Virus genome (UHGV): UHGV-1781188
From: a virus
DNA length: 20,865 nucleotides
Strand: one strand, 5' to 3'
A model generated the notes under the pieces. It ran no database searches and was not told the origin of the DNA. It saw nothing but the letters and a program-made list of their open reading frames with translations. Numbering within the stretch: position 1 is the stretch's first letter; the number at the start of each line of letters is the position of its first letter. Of this stretch, positions 3,908 to 20,837 are shown piece after piece. A program made the translations under genes and the position numbers.

Positions 3908-4026
3908 AAAATCTCCTCTGGGAATGAGAGTGTGAACAGGATTATACGTCCAAATGCGCAGGAATTATGCACGTTTGCCTCTTCAGGCCATGCTTTAGCA
4001 TGAGGAACCTGTGTGGGCTCGGTGCT

Positions 4027-4239
4027 TCATAGTCTACCACCTCTGAACTCTTCGTGCTCAGGCATAATAGAGAACCAGATATCTACGATGTCCTCCCACG
4101 TCAGGTCATCAGCCTCAGGATCTGTCTGGGACGAAGATGAAGAGTCCTCAGAATCTAAGTTTTCCTCTTTAACTGGCTCATCCAAGGGACATATGGTCAC
4201 TCCTTCGGATGTCTCTTCAGATGCATGTGTGTTGATCAT
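4027..4239 (-). CDS. highly acidic Ser/Asp/Glu-rich protein (70 aa)
   Basis: internal ATG of track ORF 4027-4440; ATGA overlap with the upstream small peptide; about 20 D/E versus 3 K/R. Confidence 0.5.
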   Translation of the reverse strand: MINTHASEETSEGVTICPLDEPVKEENLDSEDSSSSSQTDPEADDLTWEDIVDIWFSIMPEHEEFRGGRL

Positions 4240-4337
4240 GTTCCACCTGTGAGTATTCCGGCAACAGCCGCTATGGACGTAATGATCATCAGGATCACCA
4301 CTAAAACTTCGGACAATGTTCTCATAGTGTATTCCAT
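4236..4337 (-). CDS. small hydrophobic peptide (33 aa, one predicted TM helix)
   Basis: MEYTMRTLSEVLVVILMIITSIAAVAGILTGGT; SD ggaga 5 nt upstream; promoter 4358-4386 just upstream; stop overlaps the next start (ATGA). Confidence 0.45.
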   Translation of the reverse strand: MEYTMRTLSEVLVVILMIITSIAAVAGILTGGT

Positions 4338-5265: not shown

Positions 5266-5291
5266 AAAGAGGGGCCCAAGCCCCCCTCTTT
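5266..5291 (-). terminator. rho-independent terminator (possibly bidirectional)
   Basis: aaagaggggc / gcccccctcttt hairpin; on the minus strand followed by TTTTT; directly after CDS 5296-5601. Confidence 0.6.
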
Positions 5292-8425: not shown

Positions 8426-8689
8426 TCACCCAACAACCATAGCTTCAAAAGGGGTCATGAACGAATAAACGGCATCATCATCTGCTTCAGGGAATGCTCC
8501 CAAAGACTTCATGTCTGAGCCTTTGACAAATACAAGGTTTTGATCAAAAGCTTCTTGGGGGTCAATCCGATACATATTTCGTAGAATATCGCCTACCTCC
8601 TCATCAAGAGGTGAGTATGCTGTGCACGTTTTTCCGATCAAGCTTTGAGAATCAGGGTATCCACCTGAAGTTTTAAAATAAACAATCAT
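8426..8689 (-). CDS. small protein (87 aa), paralog family A
   Basis: GYPDSQSLIGK and LVFVKGSDMKSLGA match the family A core. Confidence 0.65.
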   Translation of the reverse strand: MIVYFKTSGGYPDSQSLIGKTCTAYSPLDEEVGDILRNMYRIDPQEAFDQNLVFVKGSDMKSLGAFPEADDDAVYSFMTPFEAMVVG

Positions 8690-8744
8690 ATAGTATCACC
8701 TATGGTAAGAGATTGGGATTCCTTTCCCACAAATAATTACAAAC

Positions 8745-8761
8745 CTTCCTTGTCGAGGAAG
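8745..8761 (-). terminator. short hairpin followed by a U-rich tract (weak terminator candidate)
   Basis: cttcct / aggaag 6-bp stem; on the minus strand followed by gtttgtaattatttg; downstream of CDS 8781-9050. Confidence 0.3.
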
Positions 8762-8780
8762 TATGCTAATCCAAGCAGGA

Positions 8781-9050
8781 TTATTCCTCTACAATCTCAT
8801 ACACATCCGGAGTTACAATCAACTCTTCTCCGTTACCTGGTGCAACAAACACCACCATTCCTTCAGGTGTGTGCTTTTTAGCCATCTCGATAACATCTTC
8901 TCGCAGAGCTGGCTCCATCAGATCAAAACCTTCACCCAGGGCATCACGAACCACCTTCATATAGTCAACTGGTTGTGCTTCGACAATCATGCCTTCAACC
9001 AGTCCACAGTTTTTGTCTGCCAGCTCAGTTTTGAATAATTTAATTTTCAT
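8781..9050 (-). CDS. small acidic protein (89 aa), paralog family B
   Basis: MKIKLFKTEL N-terminus and ...YEIVEE C-terminus parallel 7357-7614; SD gaggaga upstream. Confidence 0.7.
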   Translation of the reverse strand: MKIKLFKTELADKNCGLVEGMIVEAQPVDYMKVVRDALGEGFDLMEPALREDVIEMAKKHTPEGMVVFVAPGNGEELIVTPDVYEIVEE

Positions 9051-9076
9051 TTAGAGGTCTCCTCAATTATTTGATA

Positions 9077-9178
9077 TTAATAGCCGTAACCTAACACATT
9101 AACTACAACTGCGATTGCAAACATAATTTCAAAGCATGCAATCTCTACATTTGGGACTAGTTTCTTAATCACGCCCAT
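9077..9178 (-). CDS. small hydrophobic peptide (33 aa)
   Basis: MGVIKKLVPNVEIACFEIMFAIAVVVNVLGYGY; SD gaggtg upstream, overlapping the stop of the HPF-like gene. Confidence 0.4.
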   Translation of the reverse strand: MGVIKKLVPNVEIACFEIMFAIAVVVNVLGYGY

Positions 9179-9187
9179 TGTAGCACC

Positions 9188-9505
9188 TCATTCTCCAAAG
9201 TCAATCTTTACTTTGCCTTTCCCCTTACCTTTCTTTCCACCGCATTTAGCCAGCTGACGTGCTGCAACATCTACCATACGGTCAGTTGCCTCGTAAGCAT
9301 CACCACCTTTAGCCTTGGCAATAACTTCTTTTCCAGAATTGTCAAAAATGAGCGCCATAACTTCCTGGTGATCATTTTCAACTTTTACACTCACACGTGC
9401 ATAGTTGGCAGAGGGGTGCAAACGCTCCAGCTTAGACATTTTGTGGGAAATGAAAGACACCATACCTTCAGTGATTTCTACGTTGCCAGTGATTTCAATT
9501 TGCAT
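9188..9505 (-). CDS. hpf: ribosome hibernation promoting factor-like protein (HPF/RaiA/YfiA family) with Gly/Lys-rich tail
   Basis: N-terminus MQIEITGNVEITEGM and the segment KAKGGDAYEATDRMVDVAARQLAK match hallmark HPF/RaiA motifs as I remember the E. coli proteins (N-terminal ITG..(M/V)EIT and C-terminal D.Y.AI..L...L.RQL); SD aaagga upstream. Confidence 0.8.
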   Translation of the reverse strand: MQIEITGNVEITEGMVSFISHKMSKLERLHPSANYARVSVKVENDHQEVMALIFDNSGKEVIAKAKGGDAYEATDRMVDVAARQLAKCGGKKGKGKGKVKIDFGE

Positions 9506-9523
9506 AACGTGTTCCTTTTAAAG

Positions 9524-9544
9524 AAGAGGGAACCAAACCCTCTT
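9524..9544 (-). promoter_or_regulatory. hairpin in the leader of the HPF-like gene
   Basis: aagaggg / ccctctt 7-bp stem with a 7-nt loop, between promoter 9553-9581 and the hpf RBS. Confidence 0.35.
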
Positions 9545-9552
9545 TGAAAACA

Positions 9553-9581
9553 ATGATACTAAATCTGAAGCGTTGTGTCAA
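9553..9581 (-). promoter_or_regulatory. sigma70-type promoter upstream of the HPF-like gene
   Basis: minus strand TTGACA (9581-9576), 17-bp spacer, TATCAT (9558-9553). Confidence 0.5.
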
Positions 9582-9587
9582 CAGTTT

Positions 9588-9878
9588 TTACAGCTTGTTG
9601 TCGATAGTTTTTAAAATATCCACAGCAAGATCTGCCATTTTTCGAACATACTCTGCAAACTCAACAGGATCCTTGATCAAAGAATTCACAGGGTCGTACC
9701 CTAGAGCGTTTAAAATGGCTGCAGCATCTACAACCTTCTCATCATTTGCGAAGATCTCTCCGTCAAACTTGTAGGTCCATTTTGAGTCAACCTTAGCAGA
9801 GCAGGGTTTGTCCATGCTTGTTACACCATCGTCTTTAAACTCTCCTGCGTTATCAATATTTAGAATTAAATCCATCAT
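9588..9878 (-). CDS. hypothetical protein (96 aa)
   Basis: ATG-ATG start with SD gaggtg upstream. Confidence 0.65.
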   Translation of the reverse strand: MMDLILNIDNAGEFKDDGVTSMDKPCSAKVDSKWTYKFDGEIFANDEKVVDAAAILNALGYDPVNSLIKDPVEFAEYVRKMADLAVDILKTIDNKL

Positions 9879-9895
9879 GGTGACACCTCACTGTT

Positions 9896-10294
9896 TCAGT
9901 TTAGCTTTTCTTCAACAACCCCATAACTTGGGGCAGAGTCAAGAGCTTTCTGGTTTAAAAGTGGCGTAGCAGAATCTGCAAACGGTGTCCAAGTTTTTGT
10001 TCTGGCATTCCAGTAATGCTTCACTCTGGAATCTGGATGCACTATAACAAAAACTTTTTCACTTGTCAACACATTAATTTCTTCTACACCCTTGCTGATA
10101 ATTTCTCCGTCATAGCCCCCAGTCTGGTATCCTTCGTACCAGGTTCTTGCATAGGCATAGCCAGCCTGCCAGCATGCAGCCTCCTCCGAGGTGGAGACTA
10201 CGTAGAAGTCTTTCTCAAATTCTGGAATACGCCCTTGCTTTACGCTCCAAGCCCCGCGAATTTTCATTGTAACTTTAAACAGTTTATTTTTCAC
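9896..10294 (-). CDS. hypothetical protein (132 aa), paralog family C
   Basis: HPDSRVKHYWNARTKTWTPFADSATPLL aligns with 7694-8089; the track start is GTG and the true start is uncertain. Confidence 0.6.
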   Translation of the reverse strand: MKNKLFKVTMKIRGAWSVKQGRIPEFEKDFYVVSTSEEAACWQAGYAYARTWYEGYQTGGYDGEIISKGVEEINVLTSEKVFVIVHPDSRVKHYWNARTKTWTPFADSATPLLNQKALDSAPSYGVVEEKLN

Positions 10295-10306
10295 AACGGT
10301 TACCCA

Positions 10307-10561
10307 TCACAGCTCTACAATATCTGCATCTGACCCTACCCCAAAGGCATAATAGGACTCTTCCCCGAAATAGTATTCAGGTGCACCAGCGGTGATCAGG
10401 TCTGATCCCAAGATAAACACCACGTTGTGGCCTACATAGCTGTGATGTTGCCGCACAGGATCATCCCACGGCAACCCTTCAAAGTATACCGCAGGAACGA
10501 CCTTTCCCTTCAGGAAGGATTGTCCCAAGTAGATGTTAGAATCAAGAATTTTAACCTTCAT
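10307..10561 (-). CDS. small protein (84 aa), paralog family A
   Basis: MKVKILDSNIYLGQ...GSDLITAGAPE... closely parallels its neighbour 10551-10775; SD ggagga upstream. Confidence 0.7.
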   Translation of the reverse strand: MKVKILDSNIYLGQSFLKGKVVPAVYFEGLPWDDPVRQHHSYVGHNVVFILGSDLITAGAPEYYFGEESYYAFGVGSDADIVEL

Positions 10562-15165: not shown

Positions 15166-15433
15166 AGTAGGCAACCGTATTATTTTTCTCTGGGGAGATG
15201 CCAACAACATCTACCTGCAGACCTCCTGCCCTTAAATCTCCAACAATGTGCGGGAAGTAATCTGAGAGATGCGAGGGTAGATTTATCGAAAATCCGCACC
15301 CCAGAAAGCCTGCTAACGCTTTATTTTGTATCTCCCCTACAATCGCATCATAAATGGAGTTAAGCTCGTCAGGGAGCGTTACAGGGCGTTTTAGCGCTAG
15401 CTGGTGTAATTTGTCCTTAGCACTCATTTTCAT
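15149..15433 (-). CDS. hypothetical protein (94 aa)
   Basis: start MKMSAKDKL in ATGA overlap with the methyltransferase stop. Confidence 0.55.
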   Translation of the reverse strand: MKMSAKDKLHQLALKRPVTLPDELNSIYDAIVGEIQNKALAGFLGCGFSINLPSHLSDYFPHIVGDLRAGGLQVDVVGISPEKNNTVAYLTVTW

Positions 15434-15963
15434 TTCAGGTCTACCTCTGGGGGTGCCAACCACATAAACGGCGGCAAGTCTAAACGGTTTTTCTTATCCC
15501 ACACAAAATATGCATATGCTTGCCCGTCAGTTCTGCCGTTTGATTGAAATGATGGACGCTTAGATATTGTGATCACAGTAGTAGGTGCATTATCAAGCCA
15601 CCATTCAAATCTGGCTTTGCTTTCCAGAAAATTAAGACGCAAAAGCATAATAACTACGTCAGCATCTTTCAACGCCTTGTCTACAAACTCACGAGCCAGG
15701 CTGTATGGTGGGTTGGTGATAATACAGTCAACATGGTTGTATTCTGTATTCAGATAGTCAACACCTTCTTGTATTTCTCCCCATGCAGATCCTAACGGCA
15801 TACGGGAGTAGAACACACCTGAGGCACTATTCCTGCAAGGCTCTAAGTAGGTCCAGTCTTCTGGGAACGGAATAAGGTCATACAGCCCTTCTGCACACCA
15901 CTCCGGTGTCACATACTCATCGTAGGCGTTACGTTGTTCATCAGGTTTTCTAGCACAAGTCAT
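15430..15963 (-). CDS. DNA N6-adenine methyltransferase, small phage Dam type (177 aa)
   Basis: DCIITNPPY matches catalytic motif IV (D/N/S)PP(Y/F) of amino-methyltransferases; size fits the short phage Dam family; SD ggag upstream. Confidence 0.7.
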   Translation of the reverse strand: MTCARKPDEQRNAYDEYVTPEWCAEGLYDLIPFPEDWTYLEPCRNSASGVFYSRMPLGSAWGEIQEGVDYLNTEYNHVDCIITNPPYSLAREFVDKALKDADVVIMLLRLNFLESKARFEWWLDNAPTTVITISKRPSFQSNGRTDGQAYAYFVWDKKNRLDLPPFMWLAPPEVDLK

Positions 15964-16014: not shown

Positions 16015-17064
16015 TTAAGCTTCTTCGACAATTCCTGCACCTAGGATTTTTTCATTGAGCTCTTTTGCTGTTTTAATAATATTGTCCACCAGACGCTTGC
16101 GAGTCTTATCTTTCACCTTAACCTCTTCACCGCCGTTCAGAGTAGTCTTCAATTGAGACAGAATATCCTGAAGTTCAACGACAGAGAATCTCTGCAGATC
16201 TTCTGAAGTAATCTCACTCAGGGCAATTCTGACGGTCTCGCCACTTTCCATCTGCAGATTCAGGAACACAGTGTGAACATCACCTTTCGAACCACCCGCT
16301 TTTGCAGATTCAACAGCATGAACTAACTCATCTAAAGATGTGCACTGGTGAATCTCCGGAAGACCTGCTTCACCTAACACGCCTTCTTCATCACCTTTTG
16401 CCAGAAGCTTTTTCGGTTTTTGTCCGTTCTGGATGCGTTGTATGTTGCCTTCATCCAGAATAATAGCTCCAGTGCGTGCTGCCAGCTCTTCTCCGTCCAA
16501 CCACACTTCGCCACCAGCTGTGATGGATGCGATCTCATCTTCTGTCAGCACCCCACCGTAGTATTTTTCGATCAGGCGTTCAAAACGTTTTTTCCAGTAG
16601 CTGACCTGAGTATTCATGTTCACACCGTTACCATAAGTGCCACCTTGATAGTAGTGGAACATAAACTCTGTGTCCGGAGCCACAGTACGTTCTTTACAAC
16701 CAAGCCATAAGATTGTTCCAGCAGAGCAGCACATCCCTTCAGCATGTGCAACAACGCTTGCCTGAGACTCTCGGAATGCCTGCAGATAAGCCATTGCAAT
16801 GTGCACGCAACCCCCAGGGCTATTGATGATCACCCGAATGCTTTCTTCCGGCTGAGCCATACGGATCGTCTGCAGACGAGACATATGATCTTGTAAGTCT
16901 TCCAAATCGTCGATATAAAGAACGTGGTCAACAACAGGTGTTGGGTAGCTGTATGTTTCCATGATACCGCCCGGCATACCAAACATTTTATTACTCATAG
17001 GTTCGAAACCGTTCTGTTTTTCTTTCATGCCGTGTACCATGGTGCTGCGAGGTGTTAAATTCAT
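16015..17064 (-). CDS. ClpP-family (S14/S49-like) serine protease with a ~130 aa C-terminal extension (349 aa)
   Basis: VIINSPGGCV (ClpP INSPGG motif), GMCCSAG (catalytic Ser context), FMFHYYQGG (catalytic His context); Lys/Glu-rich helical C-terminal region; SD aagga upstream. Confidence 0.8.
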   Translation of the reverse strand: MNLTPRSTMVHGMKEKQNGFEPMSNKMFGMPGGIMETYSYPTPVVDHVLYIDDLEDLQDHMSRLQTIRMAQPEESIRVIINSPGGCVHIAMAYLQAFRESQASVVAHAEGMCCSAGTILWLGCKERTVAPDTEFMFHYYQGGTYGNGVNMNTQVSYWKKRFERLIEKYYGGVLTEDEIASITAGGEVWLDGEELAARTGAIILDEGNIQRIQNGQKPKKLLAKGDEEGVLGEAGLPEIHQCTSLDELVHAVESAKAGGSKGDVHTVFLNLQMESGETVRIALSEITSEDLQRFSVVELQDILSQLKTTLNGGEEVKVKDKTRKRLVDNIIKTAKELNEKILGAGIVEEA

Positions 17065-17539: not shown

Positions 17540-18328
17540 TTACTCGGAAACAGGGGTCCAAATATGATTTGCACGATCCTCAATAAGATTGAGTGCAATC
17601 TGACGACCCAACCCGGAACGAACAACATCGTCTGGACTATCAAAGCTGATCATTCCAACCTCAGGGTCTGGATGACGAGTAAAGAAATCCGTCACCCATG
17701 CAAGGCCAGATTTACCAGGGATGTCACGTTGGCTATTATCGCCCATAATTACAAGGGTGGCCTGATCAGAGATCCTTGTGATAATTGACAACATTTCTTC
17801 AGGGTTAGTTTGCTGTGCCTCGTCAATCAGGACAAAGCATCGCTCATCGAAACTACGACCACGAATGCTTTCAACCTCACAAATCTCGATACGGCTGTTC
17901 TGACCGTCTCCCAGCATTGCGGCAAAAGCACCTTTGCCAACACGACGACAAATCGTGTCCATCATGCTTCGAAGATAGGGCCACAGTTTCTGCATTGCAT
18001 TTCCAGGTTTAAATCCTGAAGTCTTTCCTGTCTGAACGTAAGGACGTGCAACAATGATCTTATCAATCTCGTTCTTACGCAGAAGATCACCTGCATATGC
18101 AGATGCCATGAATGTCTTACCGGATCCAAACACACCGTTTACAATGATAATCTTACGTGACCCTAGATAATCAAGATACTTTTGCTGCTTCTTATTCATT
18201 GGTCGGAGAGCTGGAGCGGTGTGCGCTCTTTCGTCAGCAAATTTCTCAGCAGCCTTGCGCAGGCGATCAGATTTGCGAGCCTCTCTAGCTTCATCACGCA
18301 TGCGTTTTGTTTCTTTAGCTCGACCCAT
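17540..18328 (-). CDS. phoH: PhoH-like ATPase (262 aa)
   Basis: Walker A GVFGSGKT and Walker B VLIDEAQ in a PhoH-like arrangement; SD aaaggagt upstream. Confidence 0.85.
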   Translation of the reverse strand: MGRAKETKRMRDEAREARKSDRLRKAAEKFADERAHTAPALRPMNKKQQKYLDYLGSRKIIIVNGVFGSGKTFMASAYAGDLLRKNEIDKIIVARPYVQTGKTSGFKPGNAMQKLWPYLRSMMDTICRRVGKGAFAAMLGDGQNSRIEICEVESIRGRSFDERCFVLIDEAQQTNPEEMLSIITRISDQATLVIMGDNSQRDIPGKSGLAWVTDFFTRHPDPEVGMISFDSPDDVVRSGLGRQIALNLIEDRANHIWTPVSE

Positions 18329-18891: not shown

Positions 18892-19365
18892 CTAGTCTAC
18901 CTGAACCCAACCGCCTGATACTTTTTTAAACATTCTTTGGTTATCACTGCCTCGGAACGGTTTCTTGGTTGGTAAATCTTTTACATACTTACCGTCAATG
19001 ATGATATCAGCCAGTTTAAGAACATCACTAGAGATATGGTCAAATGTGAACCCAGTATATACAAGAATAGTTTTCTTGTCACCAAATTTTTCCTTAATTT
19101 TCTCCATCAGGCTAATAATATCTGGCTCATTATAGTATGCTAAGGGTTCTCCACCCAGCAGAGAGATACCGCACACAGACGGGTTATCTAAATCTGACAA
19201 GATTTTTTGCAAGTCTTCTTCAGTAAACTCTCTCCCCTTATCTTTTGACCAAAATGCCTGATTAAAGCAACCAGGGCAAGCGTGTGGGCACCCAGATACC
19301 CATAAGGCAGTTCTAATACCTGGCCCTTCGGTGTAAGATATTTCTGTGTATCCGGCAATATTCAT
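18892..19365 (-). CDS. nrdG: anaerobic ribonucleoside-triphosphate reductase activating protein (radical SAM)
   Basis: CPHACPGC (CxxxCxxC radical-SAM cluster motif); GPGIRTALWVSGC, GISLLGGEPL and RGSDNQ parallel E. coli NrdG; ATGA overlap with the upstream small ORF. Confidence 0.9.
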   Translation of the reverse strand: MNIAGYTEISYTEGPGIRTALWVSGCPHACPGCFNQAFWSKDKGREFTEEDLQKILSDLDNPSVCGISLLGGEPLAYYNEPDIISLMEKIKEKFGDKKTILVYTGFTFDHISSDVLKLADIIIDGKYVKDLPTKKPFRGSDNQRMFKKVSGGWVQVD

Positions 19366-19541: not shown

Positions 19542-20837
19542 TCAGCAACCACAACTTCCGTAGTGCTTAACCCGTTCTATAACTTCCGCTTGCTTACCTT
19601 TATTGTAAGGACGGGAGTTTGGACTAGACAGGTACCCGGATACACGTCTGATCACACTGATCGTTCCCTCTTCATGGTTTCCACACTCTGGGCATACAAA
19701 GCCTTTAGCTGTTGCACTAAACTCACCAGAGAAACCACACTTGAGACATTTATCCACAGGTTGGTTAATACCAAAATACATAATGTGTTTATACCCGAAG
19801 TCAACAAGAGCCTCTAAAGCATCCAGGTTGTTTTTCAGATTTGGTGTCTCTACGTATCCGATGTTGCCACCAGAGGAGATCATAGCAAAACCTTCTTCAT
19901 ACTTCCACTTATCAAAAGGAGAGCTATTGATCCATACTGGCTGATGGAAACTGTTGGTGAGATATTCATGCTCGTGCTTCAACACTTCAGGATATTCACG
20001 ATCCAGACAGGTTGCAGCTTTATAGCATAGGCTCTCAGAAGGGGTGCCGTACAAGCTAAATGCTAGTCTACTTTCCTTCTTGTATCGCTCACAAGCATCT
20101 CTCATGTGCTGAAGGATTCCAAGAGCTAAAGCCTTGTCACCCTCTCTGCCCAAAATCTGACAGGTTTCATACACACCAATATACCCAATACTGATGGAAG
20201 CGTACCCGTCATAGAAGAGTTTATCAATACTCTCTTCAGGATCCAGGCGAGCAAGAGCGCCTTCACACCACATGATAGGGTTCTGCCCTGCCTTGGTGCC
20301 TTTCAGACGGTTAACCCTTACAAGGTGAGCCTCGTATGCAAGATCCAGATACTCGTCAAGAACGGCAAAGAAATCAACACCTTCCGTCTTAGCTTTTGCC
20401 GCAATCATTGGCAGGTTAAGACTAACAACACCCAAGTTGAATCTGCCGAGGTATTTCTCCTCGCCTGTTTCCAAGTCATTGTATTTGCTAAGAAAACTCC
20501 GGCAACCCATGCTCGTTACTTTACCATCTGTCGAGCCTGTCACTTTACGATTTAGTGGAACAGAAACAAAGTCAGGATAAATCCGCTCTGCAGAGCATTC
20601 CAGAGCTAATCGTTTCAAATCATAGTTAGGATCTCCAGGGTTCATGTTGACACCCTCTTCTAGGAAGAACAGCACTTTAGGGAACACAGGTGTGATACGT
20701 TCTTCACCAAGACCCATTTTGTGGACTTTCAGGTAGTTTTTGGTAATCATTCTACCAAAGACCGAGGTATCCAGTCCTAAACTCAATGTGATGAATGGAG
20801 TCTGCTGTCTCCTCCCTGTGTTTCCACAGGGCCAGAC
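19542..20837 (-). CDS. nrdD: anaerobic ribonucleoside-triphosphate reductase, C-terminal ~430 aa (5' end lost at contig edge)
   Basis: glycyl-radical motif RRVSGY near the C-terminus; C-terminal Cys cluster CLKC...CPEC; ITPVFPKV...EEGVN...DPNYD...LALEC parallels T4/E. coli NrdD; the frame stays open from 20786 to the adapter junction. Confidence 0.9.
   Translation of the reverse strand, partial: VWPCGNTGRRQQTPFITLSLGLDTSVFGRMITKNYLKVHKMGLGEERITPVFPKVLFFLEEGVNMNPGDPNYDLKRLALECSAERIYPDFVSVPLNRKVTGSTDGKVTSMGCRSFLSKYNDLETGEEKYLGRFNLGVVSLNLPMIAAKAKTEGVDFFAVLDEYLDLAYEAHLVRVNRLKGTKAGQNPIMWCEGALARLDPEESIDKLFYDGYASISIGYIGVYETCQILGREGDKALALGILQHMRDACERYKKESRLAFSLYGTPSESLCYKAATCLDREYPEVLKHEHEYLTNSFHQPVWINSSPFDKWKYEEGFAMISSGGNIGYVETPNLKNNLDALEALVDFGYKHIMYFGINQPVDKCLKCGFSGEFSATAKGFVCPECGNHEEGTISVIRRVSGYLSSPNSRPYNKGKQAEVIERVKHYGSCGC

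Follow-up and report, generated by a model that had tools for sequence, protein, structure and literature searches.

Hibernation promoting factor (HPF)-family genes in phages are already known. In the GenBank record of phage rV5 (DQ832317), the gene is ORF 144, a "sigma 54 modulation factor" with the legacy wording [quoted passage not shown] and an annotated "Sigma70-type promoter; P144" stands immediately before it. The gene goes by hpf, ribosome hibernation factor, or RaiA in other records. The rV5 genome paper predicted 33 sigma70 promoters and assigned this gene to transcription unit 82-163, which also holds genes for nucleotide metabolism and replication (PMC3606486). Mizuno et al. 2019 identified rV5 HPF (ABI79209, 105 aa) as a ribosome-associated protein of cultivated phages and placed it among gammaproteobacterial sequences (PMC6375957). 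Mathieu et al. 2020 mention the gene again (PMC6969025).

A single published experiment bears on the hibernation hypothesis for this gene, and it came out negative without deciding the matter. Specifically, Mizuno et al. expressed rV5 HPF from pBAD in E. coli. Mass spectrometry recovered its peptides from the crude extract and none from high-salt-purified 70S or 100S ribosomes, and 100S levels moved neither up nor down. In the tested cells, ribosomes were nearly all 70S monosomes, with a small 100S fraction. The authors named growth phase, true loss of binding, or dissociation in the salt wash as possible reasons, and their ribosome test does not settle binding. Their proposal is that the viral HPF may compete with the host protein and thereby prevent hibernation (PMC6375957).

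Cellular relatives supply the framework for comparison. One is the E. coli short HPF (YhbH; 2rql, 4v8h, 6h4n), a single domain of ~100 aa. In Staphylococcus aureus HPF, ribosome binding is abolished only by joint mutation of K27, R30, K84, and R87 (PMC4889938). In E. coli RaiA (YfiA, protein Y), a largely disordered C-terminal tail heads to the RMF site (bioRxiv 10.1101/2025.10.07.680626). A phage gene that manipulates ribosome hibernation would tie infection to host dormancy and starvation physiology and would also bear on defenses that act by translational arrest.

Here, we analyze a copy of this gene in a stretch of 20,865 nucleotides from the UHGV virus genome UHGV-1781188, called the window below. 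A first-pass annotation of the window had implied that the gene was new. It is not: the gene and P144 are annotated in the rV5 record, and the gene was tested in 2019 (PMC6375957) and noted in 2020 (PMC6969025), so our analysis adds no new object. What it adds are data on selection, distribution, age, binding residues, the tail, and hairpin conservation. The features of the locus are as follows.

9188..9505, minus strand: HPF-family coding sequence, equivalent of rV5 ORF144 (gp144); ATG start, 105 aa, stop codon included
9242..9505, minus strand: core HPF domain, residues 1-88, from the AlphaFold2 model and Foldseek
9191..9241, minus strand: C-terminal basic tail, residues 89-105, GGKKGKGKGKVKIDFGE; net charge +4, predicted disordered
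9513..9517, minus strand: Shine-Dalgarno-like AAGGA, 7 nt before the ATG, read from the sequence
9524..9544, minus strand: leader hairpin AAGAGGG-TTTGGTT-CCCTCTT, arms 9544-9538 and 9530-9524
9553..9581, minus strand: sigma70-type promoter, the equivalent of rV5 P144; -35 TTGACA (9581-9576), 17-nt spacer, -10 TATCAT (9558-9553)
9077..9178, minus strand: 33-aa hydrophobic ORF, MGVIKKLVPNVEIACFEIMFAIAVVVNVLGYGY, equivalent of rV5 ORF145; starts 9 nt after the HPF stop

The open reading frame encodes exactly the 105-aa protein that the first-pass annotation had quoted, and the assignment to the HPF/RaiA family is borne out. Pfam PF02482 (Ribosomal_S30AE, "sigma 54 modulation protein / S30EA") matches at E=1.6e-12, with 48.4 bits against a gathering score of 23.7; the match joins protein residues 3-88 to profile positions 1-83 of 88. 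TIGR00741 ("HPF/YfiA family") scores 45 bits against a cutoff of 40.9. The best PDB sequence matches are the E. coli HPF entries 2rql, 4v8h, and 6h4n (E ~1e-11, residues 1-89). Profile and fold both place the phage protein in the HPF/RaiA superfamily. The narrower models score below their cutoffs: NF007780, the gammaproteobacterial short HPF equivalog, gives 55 bits against 125, and NF007654, the RaiA/YfiA equivalog, gives 17.2 bits against 158. Judged by these two missed cutoffs, the protein is an equivalog of neither E. coli HPF nor RaiA. No Pfam family besides PF02482 matches the 105-aa protein at E up to 10. We also considered a long-form HPF, in which a second dimerization domain of ~60 aa follows a linker, and rejected it: the protein has 105 aa only, and residues 91-105 are predicted to be disordered. 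The window allele carries L52 (not F) and G68 (not S) relative to most other Vequintavirus copies examined, an allele common to phiWec191 and three "Campylobacter phage" records.

Structure prediction leads to the same family. [quoted passage not shown] In a Foldseek search of the PDB, the first 36 matches are all HPF/RaiA/pY proteins, the best having target-normalized TM scores of 0.87-0.93. The model superposes on V. cholerae HPF (4hei) with an RMSD of 1.0 A and on ribosome-bound E. coli HPF (6h4n_x) with one of 1.1 A.

Beyond the last helix, the model continues into the tail, where pLDDT falls below 50 for residues 91-105. The tail makes the phage protein basic: its pI is 8.7, against 6.5 for E. 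coli HPF, and it has 17 residues of Lys/Gly character where the E. coli HPF tail has 7 residues. Within the genus, the tail codons are as constrained as those of the core (dN 0.025-0.027 versus dS 0.36-1.3), and variation is confined to the last two or three residues. The copy in a sister lineage (described below) has a different basic tail, YSKSKGIDKRTAKWDY in place of GGKKGKGKGKVKIDFGE. Thus, the Gly/Lys-rich tail singled out in the first-pass annotation is present, but its conservation stops at the genus, the sister lineage having another basic tail.

The basic residues of alpha1 and alpha2 that mediate ribosome binding in S. aureus HPF are mostly retained. In an alignment whose S. aureus sequence was verified against 6qbz, S. 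aureus K27, R30, K84, and R87 fall on phage K25, R28, V80, and R83, so three of the four basic residues are kept. The exception, the position of E. coli K80 and S. aureus K84, is V80 in the phage protein and T80 in the sister lineage. This column lies in alpha2, in a DKLxRQL motif, and is K in 16 of 19 aligned cellular homologs. A second departure is the nearly universal DMY motif, which reads DAY; both phage lineages have Ala at a position otherwise occupied by M or L. The family signatures K22, K25, R28, R83, and K87 are retained, as are the KLER and RQL motifs.

Measured against E. coli HPF, the phage protein belongs to the same Pfam and TIGR families, is likewise a single domain, and is 40% identical over residues 1-89, sharing the MQ(L/I)xITG-NVEIT N terminus and the KLE and RQL motifs. 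It differs in K80->V, R17->V, and DMY->DAY, in a one-residue deletion in the beta1-alpha1 loop, and in a one-residue insertion in the beta3-beta4 turn. Unlike that of E. coli HPF, its gene lies in the early/middle region of a phage, behind a sigma70 promoter that looks constitutive, and unlike E. coli HPF, which promotes 100S dimers jointly with RMF, rV5 HPF when expressed did not promote 100S formation (PMC6375957). With RaiA, the phage protein shares family, fold, and a C-terminal extension past alpha2, and the unchanged 100S level would fit a RaiA-like behavior that stabilizes 70S ribosomes without dimerizing them. However, identity to RaiA is 21%, and the tails are unrelated, RaiA having an acidic end (net -3) and the phage protein a Lys/Gly-rich one (net +4). 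Given the unrelated tail and the missed RaiA cutoff, the RefSeq name "RaiA" on phage copies is generic and not specific.

Other phages carry proteins of this fold. The jumbo-phage HPFs of Cronobacter phage GAP32 and Escherichia phage PBECO4 (phrog_8990) and the protein of Xanthomonas phage XaC1 are, like the one studied here, phage-borne single-domain S30AE proteins. The jumbo-phage proteins nonetheless fall in a separate PHROG: the window protein matches phrog_12469 at 1e-69 and phrog_8990 at E=2e-6. Structure-based identity is just 20-25%, and they are missed by tblastn when the rV5-type protein is the query. The rV5-type and jumbo-phage HPFs are probably independent acquisitions, as Mizuno et al. 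concluded too (PMC6375957). Finally, T7 Gp1.2, an inhibitor of the E. coli dGTPase, is a weak structural match (Foldseek E ~3e-3, TM 0.41-0.48, 13% identity), and its inter-helix angle differs from that of HPF.

The gene is a fixture of one phage genus. The 2-kb region around it is 100% identical to Escherichia phage phiWec191 and 90-100% identical to 119 phage records; those opened belong to the genus Vequintavirus, rV5-like myoviruses of ~137 kb. Each of the 118 matching Vequintavirus records carries the HPF gene. A tblastn search of 50,697 phage records confined the rV5-type protein to Vequintavirus records, the sole further match being a mislabelled Salmonella contig with a host hpf; at least 80% of the query was covered in 119 of 119 records. 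When E. coli HPF served as query, only about a dozen further phage records proved to have a family member, the Xanthomonas jumbo phage XaC1 among them. A scan of IMG/VR gave two loci, and divergent copies were taken individually from GenBank records; every copy examined (13 loci) has an open reading frame. The sister copy (P0004; gene at 4001-4312), 64% identical in protein sequence, comes from contigs of uncultured rV5-like phages, ~125 kb long (L004-L007, Logan/ENA). There, too, the HPF gene sits in a similar block of small same-strand ORFs, in synteny and with the same -35 context. No HPF of the sister type was found among the isolates in the 50,697-record collection. Thus, the rV5-type gene is confined to one genus and an uncultured sister lineage.

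Selection on the gene is strong and purifying, and it extends to the Lys/Gly tail. Between the window and other Vequintavirus copies, dN/dS (Nei-Gojobori) is 0.05-0.18, with dS up to 0.69; the copy in phage inoa, near-identical with 2 synonymous and 6 nonsynonymous differences, lies outside this range. Between the two phage lineages, synonymous sites are saturated. A word-indexed protein search returned 5 near-identical proteins only, and phmmer, run exhaustively against 1.84 billion cluster representatives, produced just 23 matches at E <=1e-3. The best true family member after the sister copy is an enterobacterial HPF variant at 45% identity (E=5e-7). Two apparent multi-domain HPF arrays among the matches, P0006 and P0016, are Chlamydia-PMP or beta-propeller repeat proteins and were rejected as spurious, even though P0006 outscored the HPF variant. 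The GC and GC3 of the HPF gene are phage-typical (z = +0.29 and -0.62, respectively). We therefore rejected recent transfer from a host: cellular matches are at most 45% identical, at E of 5e-7 or weaker, and this distance together with the phage-typical composition argues that acquisition was not recent. These results are in keeping with the gammaproteobacterial origin that Mizuno et al. proposed.

The copy in inoa (MN850593, 246-545) has lost 18 nt in frame, a deletion that removes GNVEIT, residues 7-12, in beta1. Two 10-nt direct repeats, GAAATCACTG, flank it near the start of the gene (window 9470-9505), and the repeat makes this spot prone to slippage. Phages of the slur16 type read GNNVEIT there, as does E. 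coli HPF. Because inoa is viable as an isolate despite the deletion, the intact protein may be dispensable in the laboratory.

The claim that the gene has its own promoter stands: TTGACA-N17-TATCAT is present, conserved across lineages, and annotated in rV5 as P144. The promoter is intergenic, with the upstream gene's stop codon (9588-9590) just before it, and matches the consensus at 11 of 12 positions; its -35 box starts 76 nt upstream of the ATG. The -35 box with its context, AAACTGTTGACACA (flanks AAACTG...CA), is invariant in six of six aligned sequences, including those of the lineage whose protein is just 64% identical. The promoter is one of a regular series and not special to the HPF gene. 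Specifically, the whole window has 19 sigma70-like sites with at least 10 of 12 matches on the coding (minus) strand and 2 on the other, against an expectation of 3.4 +/- 1.9 under a first-order Markov model. This strand-biased series is in line with a suggestion made for rV5, namely that the host RNA polymerase is perhaps not modified for different promoter classes (PMC3606486). Several intergenic sigma70-like sites in the window share a TG immediately before TTGACA. One further TG-extended site, TTGACT-16-TACAAT (10/12, 9177-9204, minus strand), spans the last HPF codons and the beginning of the 33-aa ORF; were it active, it would serve as a promoter for the 89-aa gene downstream.

The leader is less conserved. 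The hairpin noted in the first-pass annotation exists, with a 7-bp stem, a 7-nt loop, and -9.9 kcal/mol, but it is statistically ordinary and not conserved. No stability beyond that of shuffled sequence was found (z=-0.49; 55 of 200 shuffles are equally or more stable), the hairpin is not in the sister lineage (L004, L006), and it is rearranged in one of the IMG/VR loci (L002). A role as a regulatory element was rejected because the energy is not above chance and, while close relatives are nearly identical, distant ones have no hairpin. We likewise discarded a role as terminator of the upstream gene, given that the hairpin is absent from the output of the terminator scan and that its position is downstream of the promoter. 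Judging by the distance of ~7 nt after the -10 box, transcription would start at ~9546-9545, and the hairpin would begin ~2 nt later. At such an extreme 5' end of the mRNA, the hairpin could conceivably serve as a stabilizer. In the sister lineage, whose leader is 26 nt shorter, GAGGG, which forms part of the 5' hairpin arm in the window, sits 6 nt before the ATG and is likely the ribosome-binding site.

Ahead of the HPF gene in transcription order, the window holds the following genes, among others.

15430-15963, minus strand: DNA methyltransferase-like ORF
16015-17064, minus strand: ClpP-like protease
17540-18328, minus strand: PhoH-like ATPase
18892-19365, minus strand: NrdG, the NrdD activase
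19542-20786, minus strand: NrdD, anaerobic ribonucleotide reductase, truncated by the window end

These results narrow the question that the gene poses. Selection is strong, residence in phages is ancient, most binding residues are kept, and one family-typical lysine is lost; the basic tail is selected yet lineage-specific. The residual interest lies in whether the protein binds ribosomes, in the direction in which it pushes hibernation, and in its phage-specific sequence features. The first-pass annotation went further, taking a hibernation factor in a virus to suggest deliberate control of host ribosome state. That step outruns the data, since the sole experiment found no rV5 HPF on salt-washed 70S or 100S ribosomes and an unaffected 100S level (PMC6375957).

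The reading we tentatively favor, at somewhat less than an even chance, is that Vequintavirus phages keep an early-expressed, diverged short-form HPF that binds the 30S decoding channel of idle ribosomes. Host RNA polymerase would transcribe the gene from its own sigma70-type promoter, in an early/middle block that also holds the nrdDG, phoH-like, and clpP-like genes. The protein would bind the 30S head-body channel, in the A/P-site region, as cellular HPF and RaiA do, with contacts made through the basic faces of both helices (K22, K25, R28, R83, and K87). Binding would park and protect nontranslating host 70S ribosomes during infection. The disordered Lys/Gly tail, ~10 residues longer than that of E. 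coli HPF, may add nonspecific rRNA contacts, and it may run, RaiA-like, toward the RMF site, favoring 70S monomers over 100S dimers. Our data show the family membership, the fold, the selection, the promoter conservation, and the retained residues; the ribosome binding, the timing of expression, the 70S-versus-100S consequence, and the benefit to the phage are inferred. Several lines of evidence favor the reading: profile matches above cutoffs and greater identity to E. coli HPF than to RaiA; a fold that superposes on ribosome-bound HPF, with three of four binding residues kept; low dN/dS and carriage by all the matching Vequintavirus records and the syntenic sister lineage; a conserved promoter in a strand-biased series, with P144 inside rV5 transcription unit 82-163; and the path of the RaiA tail to the RMF site, with the lack of a 100S rise fitting a nondimerizing role. 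Against this reading stand the absence of rV5 HPF from purified 70S and 100S ribosomes despite its presence in crude extract (PMC6375957), the change of the alpha2 lysine to Val or Thr and of DMY to DAY, the missed NF007780 cutoff, and the viability of inoa with a 6-residue deletion. A literature search found no infection-time transcriptome or proteome data for the HPF gene.

Several of the same observations can be read in other ways. The proposal of Mizuno et al. turns the protein into an anti-hibernation decoy: weak or reversible competition with host HPF, RaiA, or RMF would prevent or dissolve 100S dimers, leaving ribosomes available to translate phage mRNAs, such as in starved hosts or under an RMF-driven dormancy defense (PMC6375957). 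The lysine lost in both phage lineages belongs to a pair reported to be critical for dimerization of S. aureus HPF (PMC4889938), and loss in the high-salt wash without a rise in 100S fits weak binding (PMC6375957). The extended tail could clash with RMF, as is thought for the RaiA tail (bioRxiv 10.1101/2025.10.07.680626), and RMF rises in DRT2-mediated defense, according to a review. Yet translation is also blocked by whatever occupies the A/P-site channel, and a benefit would therefore demand fast off-rates; 100S did not fall either when rV5 HPF was expressed (PMC6375957); and competition is supported by no direct evidence. We regard the decoy as rather unlikely. A related conjecture, to which we assign a low probability, is that a phage-adapted variant, marked by the lost alpha2 lysine, DAY, and the Lys/Gly tail, does not silence ribosomes but blocks RMF/HPF-driven 100S formation or shields the decoding center from ribosome-targeting defenses. 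If this is true, the protein would be a viral anti-hibernation or anti-defense factor, a transient binder and hence one missed in salt-washed ribosomes.

Alternatively, ribosome binding could have been lost altogether and the fold, which is dsRBD-like, repurposed along with the tail to bind other RNA or a host protein. The negative association test (PMC6375957), the lineage-specific changes K80->Val/Thr and DMY->DAY, and the shift in pI from 6.5 in E. coli HPF to 8.7 all suit this idea. We nevertheless find it distinctly doubtful because, unlike Gp1.2, the phage protein keeps the sequence-level signatures of its family (K22, K25, R28, R83, K87, KLER, and RQL). Host RMF, HPF, and YfiA are also lost in high-salt washes. 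The wash applied to rV5 HPF was meant to strip loose proteins, and the authors name dissociation as one explanation for their result (PMC6375957). A transcriptional role, in which the protein tunes RpoN-dependent host transcription as a sigma-54 modulation factor, is implied by the historical name and by many GenBank records and draws on that legacy annotation alone. The "sigma-54 modulation" name stems from the position of the gene beside rpoN. All solved relatives from the PDB searches are ribosome-bound or ribosome-associated hibernation factors and nothing points to RNA polymerase, which makes this role highly improbable. Finally, the in-frame deletion in inoa and the lack of detected activity (PMC6375957) might suggest a neutral passenger or decaying gene with no phage function. 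The dN/dS values within the genus refute that view, the ORF is open in 13 of 13 loci, the query is at least 80% covered in 119 of 119 records, and the gene is retained with synteny where dS is saturated; we attach an almost negligible probability to it.

The 33-aa ORF that follows the HPF gene has a GGAG that overlaps the HPF gene end. It is an annotated CDS in rV5, FV3, and others, and a "putative membrane protein" in A51.2 and I29; no Pfam family matches it. It is probably co-transcribed with the HPF gene, a neighbor and not part of HPF. The 89-aa ORF beyond it (8781-9050) was considered as a second HPF copy and rejected, having no Pfam match and no similarity to HPF. Wrong annotations have passed from record to record here: ECP32 and inoa call this ORF "sigma 54 modulation factor," and the label appears two times in certain other records, navn among them. 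The HPF gene itself is misnamed "ATP-dependent protease La type I" in bov* and SA_NWU phages; the genuine ClpP-like protease lies 6.5 kb away. Elsewhere in the window, a GC-rich palindrome, AAAGAGGGGCCCAAGCCCCCCTCTTT (5266-5291), scores as a terminator on both strands, which makes it a putative bidirectional terminator inside the block of small ORFs. Finally, 18 GenBank records titled "UNVERIFIED: Campylobacter phage ..." (MG0656xx, host C. jejuni; L010 and L011 among them) are 93-100% identical to E. coli Vequintavirus over 8500-10500, and NCBI classifies them as Vequintavirus. Their C. jejuni host label looks doubtful and may stem from contaminating coliphages.
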